From a virus: 64,000 bases of DNA. Under the pieces are notes generated by a model that saw nothing but the letters and a program-made list of their open reading frames with translations, ran no database searches and was not told the origin of the DNA. The stretch lies in the IMG/VR virus record IMGVR_UViG_3300026478_000749, positions 1 through 64,000 of that record; one strand, 5' to 3'. Position numbers and translations under genes: made by a program. Within the stretch, counting starts at the first letter, position 1; every line of letters begins with the position of its first letter. Positions 19,954 through 55,809 of the stretch are shown in pieces.

Positions 19954-22797
19954 ATGGCAAATTCAAACAGAGTATTCGTTTCTCCAGGTGTGTATACATC
20001 AGAGAAAGATTTAACATTCGTAGCTCAAAGTGTAGGTGTTACAACATTGGGTCTGGTTGGTGAGACTTTGAAAGGTCCAGCATTTGAACCAATTCTAATT
20101 TCAAATTTTGATGAATTTAGAACTTATTTTGGTGGTACTAGCCCCGCAAAAGATGGTGCTGGAAATCCAAAATATGAACTTCCATATGTTGCGAAATCTT
20201 ATTTACAAGAGTCAAACCAATTATTTGTAACCCGTGTATTAGGACTTACTGGATATAAACCAGGCAGAACTTGGGGCATCAAAGCCCTAGGTGGCGTAAC
20301 TCTTGGTTCACTAAGCGGATCAACAGCAGGTATTTCATTAGTACCAACAGCATTAGGCATAACAGGTAGCACAATCTATGCTGAATTATCAGGAAAAACC
20401 TCAACAGAAGGTTCTTCAATTACTGACTACTTGGTAGCAGCAACTAATTCTGGCGGTGTTTACGCGCACAACGAATGGTTCACAATCGGAGAAGTTCCTG
20501 AATCTGCTACTAGCAGTCTTACAGGGGTAGAATTGGTTTCACCAATTGGCTCAAATAACAATAAAGAATGGTACAACGTTTACTACACTAAAACAGGATC
20601 AACTGATTCAACAATTGATGGTGTATATTCATACCTTTTTGTTTACTCAACAGGTACATCAGCTTTCACTGTAACAAGATTTAAGTATAATGCATCATTG
20701 AATACCGATTATCATGATATGCAAGTTTGCCTATTGAGATCTAGAGGTAGCTATATTCAAAACGTATTAACACACAGAGTAACTGGCACAACTGTTAGCG
20801 TTAGTGGATCTGGATTATCAACTAATCCTTTAGCTGACTTTACAATTCAAGTAACTGATATCGATAGTGATGTTAGAACATTTAATTGTTCTTTAGATCA
20901 AACTTCCACAAAGTACCTTACAAAGGTAATTGGTGCAGATGTATTTGATAAAGATAGAATTGAATATCCATTATATGTACACGAAGCATATCCAAACTTA
21001 GTTTCAAATCTTTTTGAACAAGGTTTAATTAGAGGTTTAAGCACAACAGTTGTAAACGCAACTGAAGGTGATAACTTTATGACTCAGTGGGACATGGCCG
21101 GATCTTCAACCATCGTTTCTGAGGTTAGAGGTGGTAAGGTATTTGACCTATTCAGTTTCTTAACAATATCTGATGGTGACGCATCTAACTACGAAGTTAA
21201 AGTAACCGTTCAAAATATTGATTTAGATACAGGCGAATTTGATGTTCTTGTTCGTGATTTCAACGATACAGACGCAAATCAGGTTGTATTAGAAAAATAC
21301 AGCAGATGTACTATGAACCCAGATCTTCCTGGCTATGTTGGTAGAAAGATTGGTACTTCTGATGGCGAATATGAATTAAGATCTAAGTACATTATGTTGG
21401 TTATGGCAGATGATGCTCCAACAGATGCTATCCCAGCTGGTTTCAAAGGTGTAACAACAAAAGCTAACGTTGGTGGTATTCGTTTCAAAACAAAATACTA
21501 CGATGCTGGTGATGTTTTATACTACAATGTAGATGGTACACCTGTAACAACAAATGGTGATAAAGTGAAGAAAGTTACTTTAGGTTTATCTACAGACGAA
21601 CACTTTATTTTTGATAGAGATATGTTCAAATTTAAGGGTACCGATGCAACTGATTCATCTTTTGGTTTCCACTTGTCTGTTAACGCAGCAAATATTACAG
21701 GTACTACTGGTGAAAAATTATTTAAAACAACTTCATACGATTTAGAAGGTACTAATAAAGGTAAATTAGATGGTGTTAACTTCCGCAAATTTACATTACC
21801 AGTATTTGGTGGATTTGATGGTTGGGATATCTACAGAAATGTTAGATCAAACGGAGATGGTTTCATTTTCGGAAAGACAACTTATATAAGCGGACACACA
21901 ACTAATGGTGGTGTATTCAATAGTTTAGTTGGTAATTCAGATTACTACGCATTTTTACAGGGTATTGAAACATTCAAGAATCCTGAAGCTGTTGATATTA
22001 ACATTTTTGCTACACCAGGTATTAACTGGAACGACCATAGCTCACTTGTAAATCAAGCGGTTGATATTATTGAGAATGATAGAGCGGACTCTCTTTATAT
22101 CATCAATGCTCCTAATTTTAGCGGCACAACGGGTGCTAACGAAGTAATTGGTGCTTTAGATGATTTAGGATTCGATTCTAACTACTCAGCAACTTACTGG
22201 CCTTGGATTCAAGTAAGAGATACAGATAACGCTACTCAGCTTTATATTCCACCAACAGGTGAGGTATTAAAGAATATTGCATTAACTGATAATGTATCTT
22301 ACCCATGGTTCGCAGTAGCGGGTTACTCAAGAGGTCTTGTTAACTCAATCAAAGCAACTAAGAAGTTGACTCTTGATGAAAGAGACGAACTTTATAAAGC
22401 AAGAATTAACCCAATTGCAACATTCTCTGATACAGGTACTATTATTTGGGGTAACAAAACGTTACAAGTTAGAGAATCAGCACTTGATAGAATCAACGTA
22501 AGAAGATTGTTATTAAGAGCAAGAAAGTTAATCTCTGCAGTAGCTGTAAGATTATTGTTTGAACAAAATGATGATCAAGTTAGACAAGAGTTCTTAAGAT
22601 TGGTTAACCCAATTCTTGAATCAATTAAGAAAGAAAGAGGTCTTTATGATTTCCGTGTAACAGTATCAAACGATCCAGAAGATATTGATGCTAACACATT
22701 GAGAGGTAAGATTTACATCAAACCTACAAGAGCGTTAGAATTTATTGATGTTGAGTTTATTATTACACCAACAGGAGCTTCTTTTGAGAATATCTAA
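19954..22797 (+). CDS. contractile tail sheath protein
   Basis: FVSPGVYTSEKD N-terminus; YWPWI, WFAVAGYSRG, WGNKTLQ, RINVRRLL, IKPTRALEFI C-terminal domain. Confidence 0.97.
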   Translation: MANSNRVFVSPGVYTSEKDLTFVAQSVGVTTLGLVGETLKGPAFEPILISNFDEFRTYFGGTSPAKDGAGNPKYELPYVAKSYLQESNQLFVTRVLGLTGYKPGRTWGIKALGGVTLGSLSGSTAGISLVPTALGITGSTIYAELSGKTSTEGSSITDYLVAATNSGGVYAHNEWFTIGEVPESATSSLTGVELVSPIGSNNNKEWYNVYYTKTGSTDSTIDGVYSYLFVYSTGTSAFTVTRFKYNASLNTDYHDMQVCLLRSRGSYIQNVLTHRVTGTTVSVSGSGLSTNPLADFTIQVTDIDSDVRTFNCSLDQTSTKYLTKVIGADVFDKDRIEYPLYVHEAYPNLVSNLFEQGLIRGLSTTVVNATEGDNFMTQWDMAGSSTIVSEVRGGKVFDLFSFLTISDGDASNYEVKVTVQNIDLDTGEFDVLVRDFNDTDANQVVLEKYSRCTMNPDLPGYVGRKIGTSDGEYELRSKYIMLVMADDAPTDAIPAGFKGVTTKANVGGIRFKTKYYDAGDVLYYNVDGTPVTTNGDKVKKVTLGLSTDEHFIFDRDMFKFKGTDATDSSFGFHLSVNAANITGTTGEKLFKTTSYDLEGTNKGKLDGVNFRKFTLPVFGGFDGWDIYRNVRSNGDGFIFGKTTYISGHTTNGGVFNSLVGNSDYYAFLQGIETFKNPEAVDINIFATPGINWNDHSSLVNQAVDIIENDRADSLYIINAPNFSGTTGANEVIGALDDLGFDSNYSATYWPWIQVRDTDNATQLYIPPTGEVLKNIALTDNVSYPWFAVAGYSRGLVNSIKATKKLTLDERDELYKARINPIATFSDTGTIIWGNKTLQVRESALDRINVRRLLLRARKLISAVAVRLLFEQNDDQVRQEFLRLVNPILESIKKERGLYDFRVTVSNDPEDIDANTLRGKIYIKPTRALEFIDVEFIITPTGASFENI

Positions 22798-22817
22798 TAG
22801 TCAGAATCTGACTGAAT

Positions 22818-22847
22818 AAGGGGTGGTTTTTAACCATCCCTTTTTTA
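22818..22847 (+). terminator. intrinsic terminator after sheath (possibly bidirectional)
   Basis: AAGGGGTGGTT/AACCATCCCTT stem followed by a T tract. Confidence 0.8.
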
Positions 22848-22978
22848 TTAGTATAAAGTAGTAATTAAAGAATATTAGTACATTGAAAATCAGTACATTA
22901 GAAATAATAGAACATAGAAATATTAGAATAAAGTAAAATAGTACTATTAGAACATTAGTATTTTAGTAACGTAGTAGC
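22848..22978. repeat. non-coding array of ~15 AG(T/A)A units at ~7-9 bp spacing
   Basis: attAGTAcatt, cAGTAcatt, attAGAAat, attAGAAcatt, tttAGTAac etc., all in the same orientation; no ORF. Confidence 0.75.
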
Positions 22979-22981
22979 AAA

Positions 22982-23010
22982 AAGCTAACGATTTTTTTCC
23001 AAAAAGTCAA
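22982..23010 (-). promoter_or_regulatory. sigma70-like promoter pointing into the repeat array
   Basis: Minus strand TTGACT-17 bp-TAGCTT. Confidence 0.6.
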
Positions 23011-23091
23011 GTATTTTGAAAAATAAATTTATTTCTAATATTGATATATTTATAAGGAAAGAAATAAACAAAACAATATAACACAAACACA

Positions 23092-23580
23092 ATGGCAGAT
23101 TTATTAATGAAAATGCCGGTTCCATATGAACCGAAACGTAAAAATAGGTTTATCCTAAGATTTCCATCATCTTTGGGTATCAACGAGTGGTATGTAACAT
23201 CTACATCCCGTCCTAGTGCTAAAATTAATTCAACTGAAATTCCGTTTTTAAATACTTCAACATATGTAGCAGGTAGATTTACCTGGGACCCAATTAAGGT
23301 TACTTTTAAAGATCCAATTGGTCCATCTGCATCCCAAGCATTGATGGAATGGTTCCGTCTTCATGCTGAATCCGTAACTGGTAGAATGGGTTATGCTGCA
23401 GGTTATAAAAAGAACGTAGAACTTGAAATGTTAGATCCAACAGGGGTTGTTGTTGAGAAGTGGATTTTAGAAGGCTGTTTCTTAACAAGTTTAAACTTTG
23501 GTGATCTTAGCTATTCAGAAGATGCTTTAGCTTCAATTGACGCTGAACTAAGAATGGATAGATGTATCCAAGTTTACTAA
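23092..23580 (+). CDS. tail tube protein (T4 gp19-like)
   Basis: YEPKRKNRFIL, YVAGRFTWDPIKVTFKD, LDPTGVVVEKWILEGCF; follows the sheath gene. Confidence 0.92.
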   Translation: MADLLMKMPVPYEPKRKNRFILRFPSSLGINEWYVTSTSRPSAKINSTEIPFLNTSTYVAGRFTWDPIKVTFKDPIGPSASQALMEWFRLHAESVTGRMGYAAGYKKNVELEMLDPTGVVVEKWILEGCFLTSLNFGDLSYSEDALASIDAELRMDRCIQVY

Positions 23581-23601
23581 TATTCAAATAGTTTTATTTA
23601 T

Positions 23602-23640
23602 AATCCCATATTCGTAAAAAACGGATGTGGGATTTTTATT
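23602..23640 (+). terminator. intrinsic terminator after tube gene
   Basis: AATCCCATATTCGT/ACGGATGTGGGATT stem plus T tract. Confidence 0.8.
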
Positions 23641-23668
23641 TAATTGATAATCAATTAATTATATCAAG

Positions 23669-23684
23669 TGTTCCACGTGAAACG
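23669..23684. promoter_or_regulatory. parS-like centromere site
   Basis: TGTTCCACGTGAAACG, a 15/16 match to the bacterial chromosomal parS consensus TGTTNCACGTGAAACA; intergenic. Confidence 0.75.
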
Positions 23685-23692
23685 CTGGTCTA

Positions 23693-23721
23693 TTGATTTT
23701 TAATTATTTTATAGTTATATT
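23693..23721 (+). promoter_or_regulatory. sigma70-like promoter of the tail chaperone, adjacent to parS
   Basis: TTGATT-17 bp-TATATT. Confidence 0.6.
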
Positions 23722-23745
23722 AAAAGAAAAGAATTCAATACTATT

Positions 23746-24486
23746 ATGGAAAATATTAACCCAATGGTTGCGTATGATGTTGTTCAACTACCTTCTCAAG
23801 GTGTACATTATTCCAACGGAAAAAAATCATTAAGAGTTGCATACCTAACCGCATCAGACGAAAATATTTTAATGTCTCCAAACTTGATTCAATCTGAAAC
23901 GGTTGTGGATGAATTATTAAAAAGAAAAATTTTAGATAAAGATATTTCTTTTGACGAGATTGTAGAAGAAGACAGACAAGCAATATTAATATTTTTAAGA
24001 AATACTGCATTTGGAACTGAGTATACTGTAACAATTACTGACCCAGGAACAAAAAAACAATTTGAAGCAGTAGTGGATTTATCTGTTTTAAAGGTTAAGG
24101 ATTTTAAATTAACAGCGGATGCTAATGGTGAATATACATTTAGCCTTCCAGTATCAAAAAAGAATGTAACTTTTAAGTTTTTATCAAACACACAAGAAAA
24201 AGAATTACAATTAATTAAAGAAACAAGTGGTACAAATGTCGCACCTGTTAATACAAAGAGATTGGAGATGATGATAAAATCAGTAGATGGTCAAAGAGAC
24301 CAAATGGCTATTTATCAATTTATTCAAAATCTACCAATTAAAGATTCTTTAGAATTTAAAAAATTTGTATCAGAAAATAAACCAGGTTTAGACTTAATAG
24401 TAGATGTAATCGCCCCGTCAGGAGAAAAAGTCCCAGTTTTGGTTGACTTTGGGGTGGAATTTTTTCGTCCCTTCTACGGAATATAA
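23746..24486 (+). CDS. tail assembly chaperone / baseplate hub assembly protein (gp26-like)
   Basis: LPSQGVHY, LTASDENIL, DRQAILIFLRNTAFG..Y, ends EFFRP; lies between tube and tape measure. Confidence 0.75.
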   Translation: MENINPMVAYDVVQLPSQGVHYSNGKKSLRVAYLTASDENILMSPNLIQSETVVDELLKRKILDKDISFDEIVEEDRQAILIFLRNTAFGTEYTVTITDPGTKKQFEAVVDLSVLKVKDFKLTADANGEYTFSLPVSKKNVTFKFLSNTQEKELQLIKETSGTNVAPVNTKRLEMMIKSVDGQRDQMAIYQFIQNLPIKDSLEFKKFVSENKPGLDLIVDVIAPSGEKVPVLVDFGVEFFRPFYGI

Positions 24487-24610
24487 AAAAAGTCAAATAG
24501 AAACTATACTATTTCTTGTCTCAAGAGGATTTAGTTATCAAGATATCTTAATCCTGCCAATTCACGAAAGAACAAGCATGATTAATGCTATATTACAAAA
24601 AACTGAATAA
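24458..24610 (+). CDS. frameshift extension of tail chaperone (G-T / gp51-like segment)
   Basis: +1 frame ...STEYKKSQIETILFLVSRGFSYQDILILPIHERTSMINAILQKTE* overlaps the chaperone 3' end and has no upstream ATG. Confidence 0.65.
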   Translation, partial: NFFVPSTEYKKSQIETILFLVSRGFSYQDILILPIHERTSMINAILQKTE

Positions 24611-24640
24611 AACTATTTATAATATTATAGCACTAGTAAT

Positions 24641-26596
24641 ATGGCAGACATAAAAAAAGATTTTTACGACTTTTTAAGAAGTTTAGGTATCGATGATGAT
24701 GATGCAAAAAAAGCATCAGAAAAACACGCTAGTGCGATTGCTGATACAGCAGCCAAAGCCTCTAAATCAACGTCAACAACCTCAAGTGGTGGTAATAGTG
24801 TTGCAAGTGCACTAGGTGCTGCTTTTATAGATCAACAAGCTCAAACCTTAGCTAGAATTAATACAGAAACTGGTAAAAAAATACTCAATACTGTAAAGGG
24901 GATGGCGACATTTAATCCTTTAGAATTAATATCAACGGTTTTCGATGCTGGACTTGCAACAACCGAGGTTTTGTTAGGGGATATAGCTAAATTAAATGCT
25001 GAATTATTAGAAAAAACAAGGGGTGCTGGTGGGTATGTCGGCAGAATTGCAACCGAAATGATGGATACAACCAGATTCGCTATGATTGAAGCTCAGCGAT
25101 TTGGTGTTACAACAAACGAAACAATAAGCGCTGTTGAGTCTTTAATGGTTAATTCTGAGAGAATGGCAACATATAATGACAAGACCATATCAAATAGCAT
25201 GGTTGCGTCGTTAGCATTCACAAAGAATTCAAAAACAATATTAGAGAACGCTGAAAATTTTAGAAATGTTGGTATTGGCCTCGATGGTGCTGCAAAATCT
25301 ATTGAACAAATTGGTTCAAGATCAATAAAATTAGGTCTTAGTGCAAAAGCTACATCAGAAACCTTAATAAGCCAACTCGGTAAACTAAACGCATTTGGAT
25401 TCCAAAACGGAATAGCTGGTTTGGGTAAAATGGTTCAAGAAGCTCAAGCTTTAAAAATAAACATGGAAAGTATTTTTACCGTTGCAGATAAATTATATGA
25501 TCCAGAAAGTGCAATAAATTTAGCCGCTAATTTACAAGTTGTTGGTGGCGCCGTTGGCGATTTAGCAGACCCAATTAAACTAATGTATGATGCAACAAAT
25601 AATGTTGAATCGTTACAAACAAGTATTATTGGTGCAGCAAGAAGCTTAGCAACATACAATGCAGAACAAGGAAGATTTGAAGTAAGTGGAGCGAATTTAA
25701 GAAGAGCTAAAGCTATGGCAGATTCATTGGGTATATCAATGGGCGAGCTAACAAATATGGCAGTTAAAGGAGCCGCTAAATTTGAAGCAATGAGCGAATT
25801 GAATATGTTCCCATCATTAACAGATGACCAAAGAGAATTTGTTTCAAATATTGCAACAATAAAAGATGGAAAAGTTGGTTTCGATATACCTAAAAATATG
25901 GTTCAACAGATGGGTCTAACCAACGTTAAAGATGGATTTGTTAGTTTGAGTGATTTAACAGATAAACAACTAGCAGAATTACAGGATTTACAGAAAAAAG
26001 CTGCAGATGAAAAGCCAATAGATATTGCTAGAAACCAATTTAATGAAACAACAAAAATATTAAACGTAGCAACAGCAATTTACTTAAGATTAATGGAGGA
26101 TGTGAGAAGTGGACCGGCTGGGGATGCTGCAGCTAATTTAATGAAGAAGGCAGTCGATTTTACTGAAAATATTAACCCAACACAAAATAATACCGCTCAA
26201 ACAGTTAGACAAGTATATGGTGAGGCTACAGGAGCTGCTGGTGAAGCTTTAGATAAAATAATAGATAAGGTAAAAGGAGGAATGCCAAAAGAGGTACAAG
26301 AAACAATTAACTATCTAGAAACAAAACTAAGTGATATAACTAAAGATTTGAATATTCAGGAAAAAGCAACTGAGGTCCTAGAAAAAGCAAAAGAGTTAAT
26401 CGAAAGAGGTATAGAAAAAGGTAAAGATGCTTATGAGAATTTAAAGGGCTTTACAGGCGCCGTAGACATTAAAGTGGATATAAACAGTAATAGCACACAA
26501 TTAGCGGGTATTGTTGTGGATGAATTATCTAAAAATCCACAAATGAGAGCTGAATTTGTTTCTAATATCGTTAAGAGCACTAAAACATTTGCATAG
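24641..26596 (+). CDS. tape measure protein
   Basis: Ala-rich helical 651-aa protein directly after the tube and chaperone genes. Confidence 0.75.
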   Translation: MADIKKDFYDFLRSLGIDDDDAKKASEKHASAIADTAAKASKSTSTTSSGGNSVASALGAAFIDQQAQTLARINTETGKKILNTVKGMATFNPLELISTVFDAGLATTEVLLGDIAKLNAELLEKTRGAGGYVGRIATEMMDTTRFAMIEAQRFGVTTNETISAVESLMVNSERMATYNDKTISNSMVASLAFTKNSKTILENAENFRNVGIGLDGAAKSIEQIGSRSIKLGLSAKATSETLISQLGKLNAFGFQNGIAGLGKMVQEAQALKINMESIFTVADKLYDPESAINLAANLQVVGGAVGDLADPIKLMYDATNNVESLQTSIIGAARSLATYNAEQGRFEVSGANLRRAKAMADSLGISMGELTNMAVKGAAKFEAMSELNMFPSLTDDQREFVSNIATIKDGKVGFDIPKNMVQQMGLTNVKDGFVSLSDLTDKQLAELQDLQKKAADEKPIDIARNQFNETTKILNVATAIYLRLMEDVRSGPAGDAAANLMKKAVDFTENINPTQNNTAQTVRQVYGEATGAAGEALDKIIDKVKGGMPKEVQETINYLETKLSDITKDLNIQEKATEVLEKAKELIERGIEKGKDAYENLKGFTGAVDIKVDINSNSTQLAGIVVDELSKNPQMRAEFVSNIVKSTKTFA

Positions 26597-52700: not shown

Positions 52701-54043
52701 TAATTCAAGAATGGTATAGAAGAAAACGTATTGGTATGTTTTTCTGTGGAGGCGTGGTTAATTATTCTTATATTGAAAACTGGTTACACGGTGTATTATA
52801 CTTTTTTAAATTTGATTATAGAATAAGATGGGACGATAAATCAGTAAGAGATTTAAATCAAAGAGGTAGCAAATATCCGAGAGAGCTAATTTTCTTTAAT
52901 GTTTTAGACGGTAAATTTTATTATAGAAGCACCCCATACAACCCAACATCTAAAACATTTATTGGTCAATCATATTCCGGATACAAAGAATTATTACATC
53001 CAACAACCTTTTATGATGTTGGTGTTAGAGATGAATTTTTTGATGAGATCTGTTTTGACCCAGCAGTAGACCCAACATGTTCTGTAATTAGAGATTTGAC
53101 AGTATCAAGTTATCAAGATCCAGCTAATATAATTGAACATGTTATTAACTATAGAATGGATGTTTCGGCTGCAAGAACTAATATTAATGATTTCTTCACA
53201 AATTCTGGATATACATTTAATGGAAGTGTAATGGATGGTGATGTACTTCAGCTAATCTCAATAAATTGCGAGGCAGGTATTGAAGCTTTTGATTTAGATA
53301 GCCCACATTATTTTATGTTTAATGGTGAGTTCTTAGATCCTGAAGACACAACATTTATGTCATATTTTAAAAATGGTTCTTCATGGGGGCCAACACCAAT
53401 TGATTTTAAATTAGATGTCAATGGTAGCTTTGTTAGGTATTGTTTAAATAATAGACTAGGCGACTTTACACAAAAAGTACCTTTTTATTTGTGGGATAAA
53501 AAAGCCAATGGCTTTGGATTAGATGATGATCAATTTTGGGATAGAACCGCAATAGGTGTACAAAAATTACAAAGAATGATTTCGGTATCTGGTGCAACTA
53601 ACACAACAACAAATTATTTAATGGCAGATGGGGAAGAAGAATATTTAATTAAACCAATGACAAAAACACACAACACGTTCTCATTTGTTGGTAACTATCC
53701 AGATTCTTTAGAAAGATTTGAGGCAATAAGATTAACAACACCAACAAGTGCAACAGAATTTGTTGAAGGTGACCTTTGGTTACATGTTTTAACTGGCACA
53801 CAAAAAAATCCATTAACAGGTAACATTTATGTTGTTGTAAACGGGGCTTGGTCTTCTCCAATACCGTATGTTAAAGATAACAATGAAACGTTCATTTATC
53901 AAACAGCATTAAACTATTCTGGAAACAAACAAGTACTCTCAACACCATTCCAATTCTATTTCGGATTAAGACCTGGGAGCACGGCTTATGATAAATTTAT
54001 AAAATATTATGGACCAAAAGGTGCATTCCCGTCAACTGAATAA
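49730..54043 (+). CDS. large baseplate-associated structural protein
   Basis: Follows gp6-like gene; N-terminal prealbumin-like GVVCGRVTANNGLGIPNARVSI; internal hydrophobic segment. Confidence 0.6.
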   Translation: MVQKHRINTTLNGDKKVTVELKQDYDLLEILSLKFTQQDAYTSLCADYGVVCGRVTANNGLGIPNARVSILIPISDQDEQDPVISTLYPFKLSSDKNDDGYRYNLLPSRQQHAGHTPTGTFPDQNDILSREEQLEVFEKYYKFTAKTNYAGDYMIWGVPLGEQQLHIDVDLSDMGCFSLRPYDFIRQGEDANKFERFFKFRSDTDLDGLPQIVAFDKTIDVSPFWGNMDLCQIGITRADFDLSNLGIKVDPVSLMLVSTVTDADSDAVKRSGVIRRKSGYKCNLQTSDGKIQGVRFTGKKVIGSDGVTIYPELEYFNPGVIDDDGTAMAVIPMNLDYVYTNEFGEQETTNDPNKGVATSTVARLKLELNNSSGEGSSRGTSSATYLVPNIREFNKYTSGVASEYSEAIISSYVFSDVFEDYLNVPVPTGVTLEPLTNAERLHKKELILGTNNNDIPEDYFYKFIYGKVYTPTSFQGSHYEVSAAENLLGLSRRDAFLGIKEIRPNAEDDCAGTANYIPTNFAFRNRTKFGLLISQVLLFLQFIFALILNFVFELLGRFFMSVGKALYSIYFGWPFNWRPFARIGEQFQDIAHKLQVNGTQTLAITTYPDCEECTTDDEAATLTTDLSNTYCSVGEIKFKVIGVGAGGGYIYLIPIEFNTSTSTNSSIVSPGNRARDYDPTDQYMSGNTFSITGATKADTRTILSGLDEQTITPADPGDTNNARFIAQGISIVDDSILPYSPAGGDTVTKSISFSDFDLNFSANTQLGNLAQFTTGTATLITQALWNQVGNYPSTKLNEWINYAGQSGSTATVLLMPFNHASWAEIAGSNYETYDGPDSGDTPNGKGNFGDRGTYVVIRIFDRSKLKFDPTGTSTTFQIEEGCKKYDKAYDESISYKYLWSTGNTYGSSYVPLEPQNGYPAGFSESTTSPGSGYSIMADIIGGGGRLPRLRVWSKIGNSYYDRKTKSGLSEIRDGVFTVIPVIEGTSKNASLIQEWYRRKRIGMFFCGGVVNYSYIENWLHGVLYFFKFDYRIRWDDKSVRDLNQRGSKYPRELIFFNVLDGKFYYRSTPYNPTSKTFIGQSYSGYKELLHPTTFYDVGVRDEFFDEICFDPAVDPTCSVIRDLTVSSYQDPANIIEHVINYRMDVSAARTNINDFFTNSGYTFNGSVMDGDVLQLISINCEAGIEAFDLDSPHYFMFNGEFLDPEDTTFMSYFKNGSSWGPTPIDFKLDVNGSFVRYCLNNRLGDFTQKVPFYLWDKKANGFGLDDDQFWDRTAIGVQKLQRMISVSGATNTTTNYLMADGEEEYLIKPMTKTHNTFSFVGNYPDSLERFEAIRLTTPTSATEFVEGDLWLHVLTGTQKNPLTGNIYVVVNGAWSSPIPYVKDNNETFIYQTALNYSGNKQVLSTPFQFYFGLRPGSTAYDKFIKYYGPKGAFPSTE

Positions 54044-55809
54044 TGGAAAAGAAAACAATCATATTACCAGAGTTAAGGTATCATAAAGCCCCGGCCCTTG
54101 ATCTATCAACAAGAATTGGTTTAGAAACAAGTGAAGAATTGCTAAGGGAAGGAGATCGTTCAATTGTTCTAGATCTTGAAGAACACTTTAGCTACGAAAG
54201 AGCACAAAGTAACAAATACAAGATATATGGTAAGCTTAGAATGATATTCAGAAACATGTATGAAGGCGATAGCAATTACCAAAACTTGACTGAATACCTT
54301 TACTTAACTGGCGCAGGTGATATTGGAGACAATACTGGTTACATACCGTATGATGAATTCGCATTTATAAGAAGAGACACGTATAGACAAGACATTAGTG
54401 TCCCTTCAGTTAGTGGTACAACATATGGCACATACACACCAACTTTTTCATTACCAACAAAACCAAGAAACAAGCATCAAAATATATCAAATATGGACGC
54501 CCCATATCATAACTGGAATCTTTATACAAGTTATGTGTATAGCGGCGATACCAATTATCCAATGAAATATACACTCAGCGGAGCGACCAAAGTGGAGGGT
54601 ACAAATATTATTACATTTACTAGCGGTAAAGGAATACCATGTAGAGTAGAAACAACAGCAACAAATTACAAACTAACAACACCAGTTCCACATGGAATAG
54701 GTGAAGATGAGTTTGTTATAATATCTTCGGTTTCAGCTATTAGTGGAAAAACATATTCTGTTTCAAGTCTTGGTGATGACAAATATAATTCATCAAAATA
54801 TGTAATAAATCTAAATAGACAACAATTTAGTGGTGTAACCCTACCAACATTAATCACAATTAAAAGATGTATTAATGATAAAAATATATCAGGAACAACA
54901 TCAACATATTACGTACATAAACATAAAACATTAACCCCATATACCGATTATATTTTAGATAAAGCCGGATTTGAGGTACCAATATTTGAGGAAGAAAAAA
55001 AGATTTTATTTGAAGATAGTGTTGGTAATAATGATGTGTTGGTTGAAAGAAACAGACCAGAATCATTGTTATACGACTTTAGAAATAGTTTTATTTTAAC
55101 TGGTTTAACAAATAATCTTGGTTACACACCAACAGAAGTTTATGTAACTGTTTTATTTAAAAACGGATCTGGGTATTTCGAATATCCGCCAAAGGTTGGT
55201 TATAGATTTCATTTACATGACGGTTGGATAGATAATCATTTTAGTGGTACTACAGCTCAAGAAACCGCACTTAGTGGTACATCTGTTACTATTAGCGGGA
55301 TAACATTTACATCTGGTAGCACAATACCAACTGGAACAATTTTAACTGGTGCATTTGTCGAATACAATCCTTATGAATTAAAAGAAAGAATCATATCTGA
55401 AGCACTTCATAAAATTGTTCACCCAACAACAATTTTTGACCACAATCAAGACCATGATGTTGTAGGTTTTAGCGGTGCAACAGCTAATAATAAATCAGGC
55501 TTATTATATCAGCCACATTATCGAGTAAAATTAAGACAGCTTTCACCATATGTTGAAACATTTAATACCAATAATATAATAGATCTTCCAGATAATGCAA
55601 GATATTTTCCAGATGAAAAATTGTGGAAGTGGAGAGATTTATATGATCATGGTTTTGTTGATGACGAAGGTAACGGGACTGATTTCCCATTTGTAAATGG
55701 TCAACATTATGTTAAAACAGATTTTAATTTTTATTTCATAAACGAAAAAGAATTTAATAATAAATCAGATGGATTTAAAGGATTTGGAAATACAAACATA
55801 AATTGTTAA
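54043..55809 (+). CDS. putative structural protein
   Basis: Coupled (TAATG) in the baseplate operon; 11 [ST]GxT motifs. Confidence 0.6.
   Translation: MEKKTIILPELRYHKAPALDLSTRIGLETSEELLREGDRSIVLDLEEHFSYERAQSNKYKIYGKLRMIFRNMYEGDSNYQNLTEYLYLTGAGDIGDNTGYIPYDEFAFIRRDTYRQDISVPSVSGTTYGTYTPTFSLPTKPRNKHQNISNMDAPYHNWNLYTSYVYSGDTNYPMKYTLSGATKVEGTNIITFTSGKGIPCRVETTATNYKLTTPVPHGIGEDEFVIISSVSAISGKTYSVSSLGDDKYNSSKYVINLNRQQFSGVTLPTLITIKRCINDKNISGTTSTYYVHKHKTLTPYTDYILDKAGFEVPIFEEEKKILFEDSVGNNDVLVERNRPESLLYDFRNSFILTGLTNNLGYTPTEVYVTVLFKNGSGYFEYPPKVGYRFHLHDGWIDNHFSGTTAQETALSGTSVTISGITFTSGSTIPTGTILTGAFVEYNPYELKERIISEALHKIVHPTTIFDHNQDHDVVGFSGATANNKSGLLYQPHYRVKLRQLSPYVETFNTNNIIDLPDNARYFPDEKLWKWRDLYDHGFVDDEGNGTDFPFVNGQHYVKTDFNFYFINEKEFNNKSDGFKGFGNTNINC

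Follow-up and report, generated by a model that had tools for sequence, protein, structure and literature searches.

A parS-type site conserved beside the tail tube gene of a large phage matches the centromere variant of its likely host family

The ParB–parS pair is the universal bacterial centromere and SMC-loading system, and its DNA element is a palindromic 16-bp word with the consensus tGTTNCACGTGAAACa and the core GTTYCACGTGRAAC. Among phages, the plasmid-prophages P1 (parABS) and N15 (sopAB with centromeres) encode their own ParA and ParB and have site sequences of their own. We know of no case in which virulent-type phages without partition genes exploit ParB–parS. The consensus given here agrees with table 1 of PMC7022226, which also lists TGTTCCACGTGGAAC(A/G) as the parS of Pseudomonas aeruginosa, P. 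putida, and Myxococcus xanthus, and that paper describes a half-parS, GTTCCAC or GTTTCAC, that is also bound by ParB. According to PMC4368675, one perfect parS together with a parAB operon stabilized a plasmid, and in P. aeruginosa the CACGTG core mattered for affinity, with two-mismatch sites binding weakly and unable to support segregation; a table in the same paper includes natural weak P. aeruginosa sites with centers (CACGAG, TACATG, and CACAGG) like those of the phage sites described below. In P. aeruginosa, ParB is reported to repress promoters locally where they adjoin a parS (bioRxiv 10.1101/151340). Among the matches listed, all of the literature containing the exact GTTCCACGTGGAAC was on ParB or ParB-like systems, and a search of the literature, supplements aside, for phage, parS, and ParB together with the exact motif returned no description of a host-type parS on a ParB-less phage.

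The phage site that we describe resembles chromosomal ParABS sites (tGTTNCACGTGAAACa, or TGTTCCACGTGGAACA in Pseudomonas and Myxococcus) in being a 14–16-bp palindrome with a GTTCCAC/GTTTCAC half-site, and differs from them in being present in a single copy, in residing on a virus genome in which no cognate ParB or ParA was found, and in having a less strictly kept core. The phage shares with P1 and N15 the carriage of a centromere-like site, which in those plasmid-prophages serves stable inheritance, but none of the four phage records studied here has a ParB_N, HTH_ParB, or AAA_31 match, and the site appears to be that of the host. Plasmids with one chromosomal parS and host or supplied parAB indicate that one perfect parS suffices for ParB-dependent handling of a foreign replicon (PMC4368675); those plasmids were laboratory constructs, whereas the phage sites are natural, are conserved in a virulent-looking jumbo phage clade, and are often imperfect. 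As at the ParB-repressed promoters of P. aeruginosa described in bioRxiv 10.1101/151340, the phage parS lies right beside a promoter, although its spacing from the promoter varies among relatives and promoter control in the phage is only putative.

The window, by which we mean the whole stretch of DNA that we analyzed, is the first 64 kb of an 86-kb IMG/VR record with a GC content of about 32%, which CheckV scored as 28% complete, implying a genome near 300 kb. The parS-type site TGTTCCACGTGAAACG (23669-23684, no strand assigned) is intergenic and agrees with the parS consensus in 15 of 16 letters; its 14-bp core GTTCCACGTGAAAC (23670-23683) matches GTTYCACGTGRAAC at all 14. The tail sheath gene (19954-22797, plus strand; Phage_sheath_1 and Phage_sheath_1C; phrog_23) is followed by a 294-bp spacer (22798-23091, plus strand), which lacks the motif in this phage, and then by the tail tube gene (23092-23580, plus strand; phrog_4542 tail tube, E 5e-28, with a PF06841 match below its cut-off). 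The site occupies the next spacer, of 165 bp, which separates the tube gene from a T4-baseplate/hub-like gene (23746-24486, plus strand; PF12322 T4_baseplate, E 1.9e-7; phrog_150 baseplate hub). The elements of this spacer are, in order, an intrinsic-terminator-like hairpin ending the tube transcript (23602-23634, plus strand; 14 pairs, of which 5 are G-C, followed by a T-rich tail, with the same hairpin obtained in a separate folding), a perfect AT-rich 9-1-9 palindrome, TTAATTGAT-A-ATCAATTAA (23640-23658, no strand assigned), the site itself, eight bases (23685-23692), a promoter-like TTGATT-17-TATATT for the hub-like gene (23693-23721, plus strand, scoring 9/12), and the start codon at 23746. 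An initial annotation had described the intergenic parS-like word, the palindrome, and a sigma70-like −35 beginning 8 bp after the site, all of which are present exactly as it described; it had also taken the gene downstream of the site for a chaperone, an assignment that the domain matches replace with a T4-baseplate/hub-like one.

The AT-rich word TTGAT/ATCAA occurs three times around the site (23640-23658 and 23692-23706), as the perfect palindrome and as a further copy that also serves as the −35. One subclade retains both the TTGA..TCAA palindrome and this third copy, which are absent from L009- and L020-type loci; in L017 all three copies are altered in step (GTTGA / TCAAC / GTTGA), and in the L042 clade the TTGAT/ATCAA words are replaced by AATTCGTTA...TAACGAATT followed by a T run.

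When at most one mismatch to TGTTNCACGTGAAACA was allowed, the window contained one match and none of 100 dinucleotide-preserving shuffles contained any. Extending the scan to the whole 86-kb record left this single intergenic site as the sole match at two or fewer mismatches. A scan at three or fewer gave six matches, against a shuffle mean of 2.54, a number reached by 9 of 100 shuffles and hence not unusual. A chance origin of the parS-type site is excluded. The hexamer CACGTG occurs once in the 86-kb record, inside the site, where a first-order model predicts 6.6 occurrences, which puts it among the most depleted hexamer palindromes of the record. Other palindromes are also depleted (GGATCC, 0 seen and 7.5 expected; GCATGC, 0 and 7.8; AGGCCT, 0 and 7.3; CTCGAG, 0 and 3.4), and the observed/expected ratio for CpG is 0.70. 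CACGTG is rare as well in three large relatives (G001, 251 kb; G002, 212 kb; and G003, 199 kb), with 3–5 occurrences versus 8–26 for GTGCAC. Each of these relatives, like the window's own record (G000), has the tube-locus site plus one coding near-match, and the coding near-matches fall in different, non-homologous genes with no synonymous conservation. In the window, the coding match at 54685 (GTTCCACATGGAAT, in the ORF at 54043-55809), which encodes a conserved V-P-H-G, was rejected as a second site because its synonymous positions vary in 10 distinct relatives (31 loci fetched).

IMG/VR scans with the tube protein (best 80 of 596 confirmed relatives) and the hub protein (best 80 of 102) provided 156 related loci in addition to the window's own. 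Both spacers were placed by tblastn and identical spacer pairs were merged, leaving 101 distinct loci, from which we dropped 17 that were missing one spacer. Exactly one GTTCC-A[C/T][G/A]N-GGAAC site was found in 62 of the 84 distinct loci with both spacers: in the tube–hub spacer of 33, in the sheath–tube spacer of 29, and in both spacers of none. The remaining 22 had it in neither spacer. Among distinct loci at 59% hub identity or higher, 62 of 67 had the site, and below 59% none of 17 did, in either the two spacers or the fetched loci. The site is thus conserved in related phages, whose lack of it, along with a lack of ParB binding, the initial annotation had named as the finding that would count against a parS. 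The same annotation had suggested checking for a conserved position between the tube gene and the downstream gene; this holds for the 33 tube–hub loci but not for the 29 in which the site is on the other side of the tube gene. Loci L082 and L083 do not differ from the window in sequence and probably represent the same phage from other samples.

Within each spacer the placement of the site is regular. Sites in the tube–hub spacer are 56–68 nt before the hub start and 6–15 nt ahead of TTGAyt-17-TATATT, in which the 17-nt spacing is retained even in the diverged loci L009, L017, L020, and L021. Those in the sheath–tube spacer are about 220–265 nt upstream of the tube start, directly after the sheath terminator and ahead of a repeat array, with a TATAAT-like word 8–9 nt after the site, and they hold this position even when insertions lengthen the spacer. 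Throughout the clade no more than about 800 bp separate the site from the tube gene, and a promoter always adjoins it. So constant a neighborhood favors either a function exerted locally or linkage with a cis element close by, the repeat array being one example, and the possibility of placing the site on either side of the tube gene weakens the classical centromere reading.

The repeat array of the sheath–tube spacers, seen at 22798-23091 in the window and in relatives, is strand-specific: in 72 distinct spacers (22,108 nt) the plus strand has TGGAAC 35 times and AGAAC 39 times outside the main motif, mostly as ACT(G/A)GAACTAG, versus 0–2 times for composition-matched 5-mers. The repeat unit and the parS half-site have TGGAAC in common, and in some relatives the parS-type site abuts the array.

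Beyond this clade, a search for close cultured relatives came up empty, with no match for positions 22000-26000 in megablast against phages. The best tube-protein matches in cultured phages were to Microcystis phage Mel-JY01 (40%) and Flavobacterium phage immuto (34%), and neither record contains the motif at one or fewer mismatches. A 484-kb uncultured phage with a tube protein 40% identical to that of the window has one GTTTCACGAGAAAC (LR756508.1:430305-430318, corresponding to L196:2006-2019), far from its tube gene, at the beginning of a minus-strand ORF or just within it.

To describe the motif itself we used 49 sites that were distinct over a 64-nt context, which are not phylogenetically independent. 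The left arm was well conserved (G1 in 48 of the 49, T2 in 42, T3 in 49, C4 in 47, C5 in 49, and A6 in 49), as was the right arm (G10 in 46, G11 in 44, A12 in 49, A13 in 49, and C14 in 45), with a looser center (C7 in 42, G8 in 33, and T9 in 40) and flanking columns that were unconstrained except for AT-richness. The center was ACGT in 23 sites, ACAT in 10, ATGT in 7, ACAA in 6, ACGA in 2, and ACGG in 1, so that it was eroded in 26 of the 49, mostly by CpG-to-TpG/CpA changes. Mismatches to GTTYCACGTGRAAC numbered zero in 12 sites, one in 27, and two in 10, and the CACGTG core, intact in the window's site, was intact in 20 of the 49. Both half-sites were perfect (GTTCCAC or GTTTCAC) in 12 sites, one of them in 34, and neither in 3. 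The arms had the C/G form in 43 sites, a hybrid C/A form in 4, and the T/G and T/A forms in 1 each, and L077 and L080 had symmetric double changes in both arms, giving GTTTC...GAAAC. The damaged core in about half of the related sites weakens the classical centromere reading. The presence of at least one perfect half-site in 46 of 49, together with extra half-sites adjoining the motif in some loci, suggests that the half-site behaves as a unit, as expected for a helix-turn-helix dimer. A third half-site of this kind adjoins the motif in the sheath–tube spacers of L025, L026, L045, L115, L116, L030, L041, and L062, producing three alternating or tandem half-sites, such as TGTGGAAC|GTTCCACGTGGAAC or, in L062, GTTCCACATGTTCCACGGGGAAC.

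The eroded centers raise the possibility of a relic or a liability: a parS of host type, acquired once and now decaying or being selected away from ParB binding, kept up by neighboring constraints or weak residual use alone. The CpG-to-TpG/CpA and other center changes, the three sites without any perfect half-site, and the clades below 59% hub identity without the site would all fit such a history, and the depletion of CACGTG means that restriction avoidance may erode the core. We nevertheless regard decay as quite improbable, because most arm columns remain at 44–49 of 49 (position 2 at 42) although the flanks can no longer be aligned, because the site has been relocated or regained between two spacers and is always found at exactly one copy, and because the arms of L077 and L080 have changed symmetrically.

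Complementary arms around a variable center might instead mark a structural element, either a small hairpin (5-bp stem, 4-nt loop) or the end of a larger structure, which could be a terminator-like hairpin or a cruciform, with a role in RNA processing, termination, or DNA structure. The right half of the palindrome, AATCAAT (23649-23655), is complementary to ATTGATT (23692-23698) on the opposite side of the site, and folding predicts an AT-rich hairpin at 23641-23706 that encloses the window's site; in L042, L046, and L051, a long stem is capped by the motif and precedes a T run. Against such a role, the stem of the motif never reaches into the flanks, arm changes mostly break pairing, and the site comes after a strong terminator and before a promoter, where it is probably little transcribed. 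An RNA hairpin was rejected for want of covariation, with 1 compensatory versus 13 unpaired cells and 108 of 500 shuffles scoring as well. A hairpin would also leave the identity with host parS unexplained, and we consider a structural explanation highly improbable.

Six-frame searches for ParB_N (PF02195), HTH_ParB (PF17762), and AAA_31/ParA (PF13614) gave no match in G000–G003, whereas control genomes responded. The initial annotation's statement that the window has no parA or parB gene is therefore borne out in the full 86-kb record, and its proposed search for a phage parB came back empty in that record and in the three 199–251-kb relatives. The same four records, including G002, which is labeled 'provirus', had no six-frame match to Phage_integrase. 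A self-contained parA-parB-parS cassette, with parA and parB on the same replicon, was not found in these records, but they are 28–75% complete, and the DNA not sampled could encode a phage ParB or some other binder.

That incompleteness leaves room for reading the site as an operator: a phage-encoded (or other host) dimeric regulator would read GTTCC...GGAAC and control the adjacent tube or hub promoter, with the likeness to parS being coincidental or a by-product of competing with ParB. Such a regulator would account for arms that are much better conserved than the center, for the proximity of the site to promoter elements (6–15 nt before TTGAyt-17-TATATT in tube–hub spacers and 8–9 nt before the TATAAT-like word in sheath–tube spacers), and for its clade-wide location within about 800 bp of the tube gene. 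The larger inverted repeat of one subclade and the constant promoter neighbor would also suit a dedicated regulator, and the looser core constraint, which is more in keeping with a half-site or regulator-like mode than with a strict centromere, keeps alive a dedicated binder reading the arms. However, the several operators or neighboring regulator gene that would mark a dedicated operator were not found: each record has one intergenic site, with sheath, tube, and hub as neighbors; no second operator (beside a regulator gene, for instance) turned up; and annotated window proteins include no candidate binder (Pfam annotation of ten further proteins yielded no DNA-binding candidate). The −35 lies anywhere from 6 to 15 nt away, so the spacing is not phase-locked, which together with the single copy favors a loading site over a classical activator. 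Finally, a 14-bp identity with the host-family centromere, including the C/G arms and the hybrid GAAAC form, would be very unlikely for an unrelated operator. We judge the operator explanation unlikely on balance.

The match to the host-family centromere depends on who the host is. SD-like words are found upstream of only 2 of 51 genes, the GC content is 32%, and the sheath–tube–hub–tape measure order is common to Flavobacterium phage immuto, though the tube proteins are only 34% alike; from these Bacteroidota-like traits the phage looks Bacteroidota-infecting. When the tube protein was compared with genome contigs, the sole match, at 86% identity, was on a 248-kb contig in a metagenome-assembled genome (MAG) titled Flavobacteriaceae, another contig of which carries a ParB_N protein and two perfect TGTTCCACGTGGAACA sites. 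Flavobacteriaceae are therefore the likely hosts, an assignment drawn from co-binning in the MAG, which is weak evidence for a host. The related phage contig within that MAG (L158) does not have the motif. Sequencing runs were of no help with the host: the 20 runs concerned, each marked as a possible source, were all riverine metagenomes, with no RNA run among them.

In the family of this MAG, GTTYCACGTGRAAC was present in 59 of 61 sampled genomes, with near-zero counts for the reversed control. These genomes usually have two parS sites about 1.9 kb apart (61 sampled; the G005–G064 pattern), and in one annotated genome the two (L161:3782-3795 and L161:5703-5716) flank gidA/mnmG, one of them 35 nt upstream of the start and the other 15 nt downstream of the stop; like the phage site, the host sites flanking gidA are intergenic and beside a promoter. 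The exact 14-mer of the window, GTTCCACGTGAAAC, is one of two forms at the chromosomal sites of the family and occurs in at least 17 genomes among the rows listed. In a sample of 81 genomes from the phylum, the C/G arm form GTTCCACGTGGAAC was found in 13 and GTTTCACGTGAAAC in 56, whereas GTTTCACGTGAAAC was found in only 4 of the 61 family genomes. Because both the phage sites and the family sites have C/G arms, the phage motif matches the centromere variant of the very family to which independent, weak evidence ties it. The sites are exact on host chromosomes and eroded on phages, which implies that the phage is under a different, looser constraint.

Taken with its conservation in relatives, this match to the variant of the likely host family supports the chromosomal-type parS identity that the initial annotation had assigned. 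We favor, with a probability of roughly 0.6 based on sequence comparisons, the explanation that the site is an orphan, host-matched parS whose selected function is to load host ParB. A host centromere word kept without partition genes of the phage's own suggests that the phage probably borrows host ParB, and the site appears to be the same word as the centromere of the organism that would supply that ParB, given the host link drawn above. Dimers of host ParB would recognize the paired GTTCCAC-type half-sites, form closed CTP clamps there, and move out along the adjoining sheath–tube–hub DNA, and such sliding would create a ParB cluster on each copy of the phage genome. The most likely consequence would be that the host's ParA/SMC machinery takes on phage DNA as a client. 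Foremost among the possible benefits we would place positioning, compaction, or segregation by that machinery in a long or carrier-state infection. Because the parS is right beside a promoter, ParB could also damp that host-type promoter 8 bp away, possibly until replication outnumbers ParB, and we rank this second; third would be drawing ParB away from both host sites. An orphan parS that is conserved and host-matched on a phage of roughly 300 kb may offer a route to position, compact, or persist in a carrier state, and it may tie up a key host cell-cycle protein.

Searching IMG/VR for the exact 14-mer GTTCCACGTGGAAC returned at least 120 stretches (L197–L316), versus 58, a full count, for a control palindrome of the same letters reversed (L317–L374). 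The full T...A 16-mer extension was present at 53 of 116 distinct parS sites versus 3 of 52 control sites, and 34 of 116 parS sites versus 7 of 52 control sites were outside open frames of at least 100 aa. A ParB homolog was detected by single-sequence phmmer in the fetched flanks of 1 of the 120 listed loci. With the exact 14-mer in at least 120 stretches and a ParB homolog in 1 of 120, orphan chromosomal-type parS sites may be common in viral contigs, some of which may be plasmids, proviruses, or mis-binned host DNA. The listed loci were on many unrelated viral contigs of all GC contents, with one in this phage family and another in a distant relative (L244). We tentatively entertain, at less than even odds, the idea that phages carry orphan copies of the host parS as a general strategy, hitherto undescribed, to engage the ParB–CTP clamp of the host and thereby ParA and SMC, with the arm variant tuned to the host lineage. 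If the arm variant is so tuned, a phage parS could even predict the host, and because the variant tracks the host family here, the site is a possible sequence-based host clue. The distant relative (IMGVR_UViG_3300028027_000193, GC 0.31), which is about 30% identical to two proteins of this phage, has two near-identical units of about 35 bp (1497-1533 and 1794-1831) that each contain a perfect TGTTCCACGTGGAACA and that bracket an 89-aa gene.
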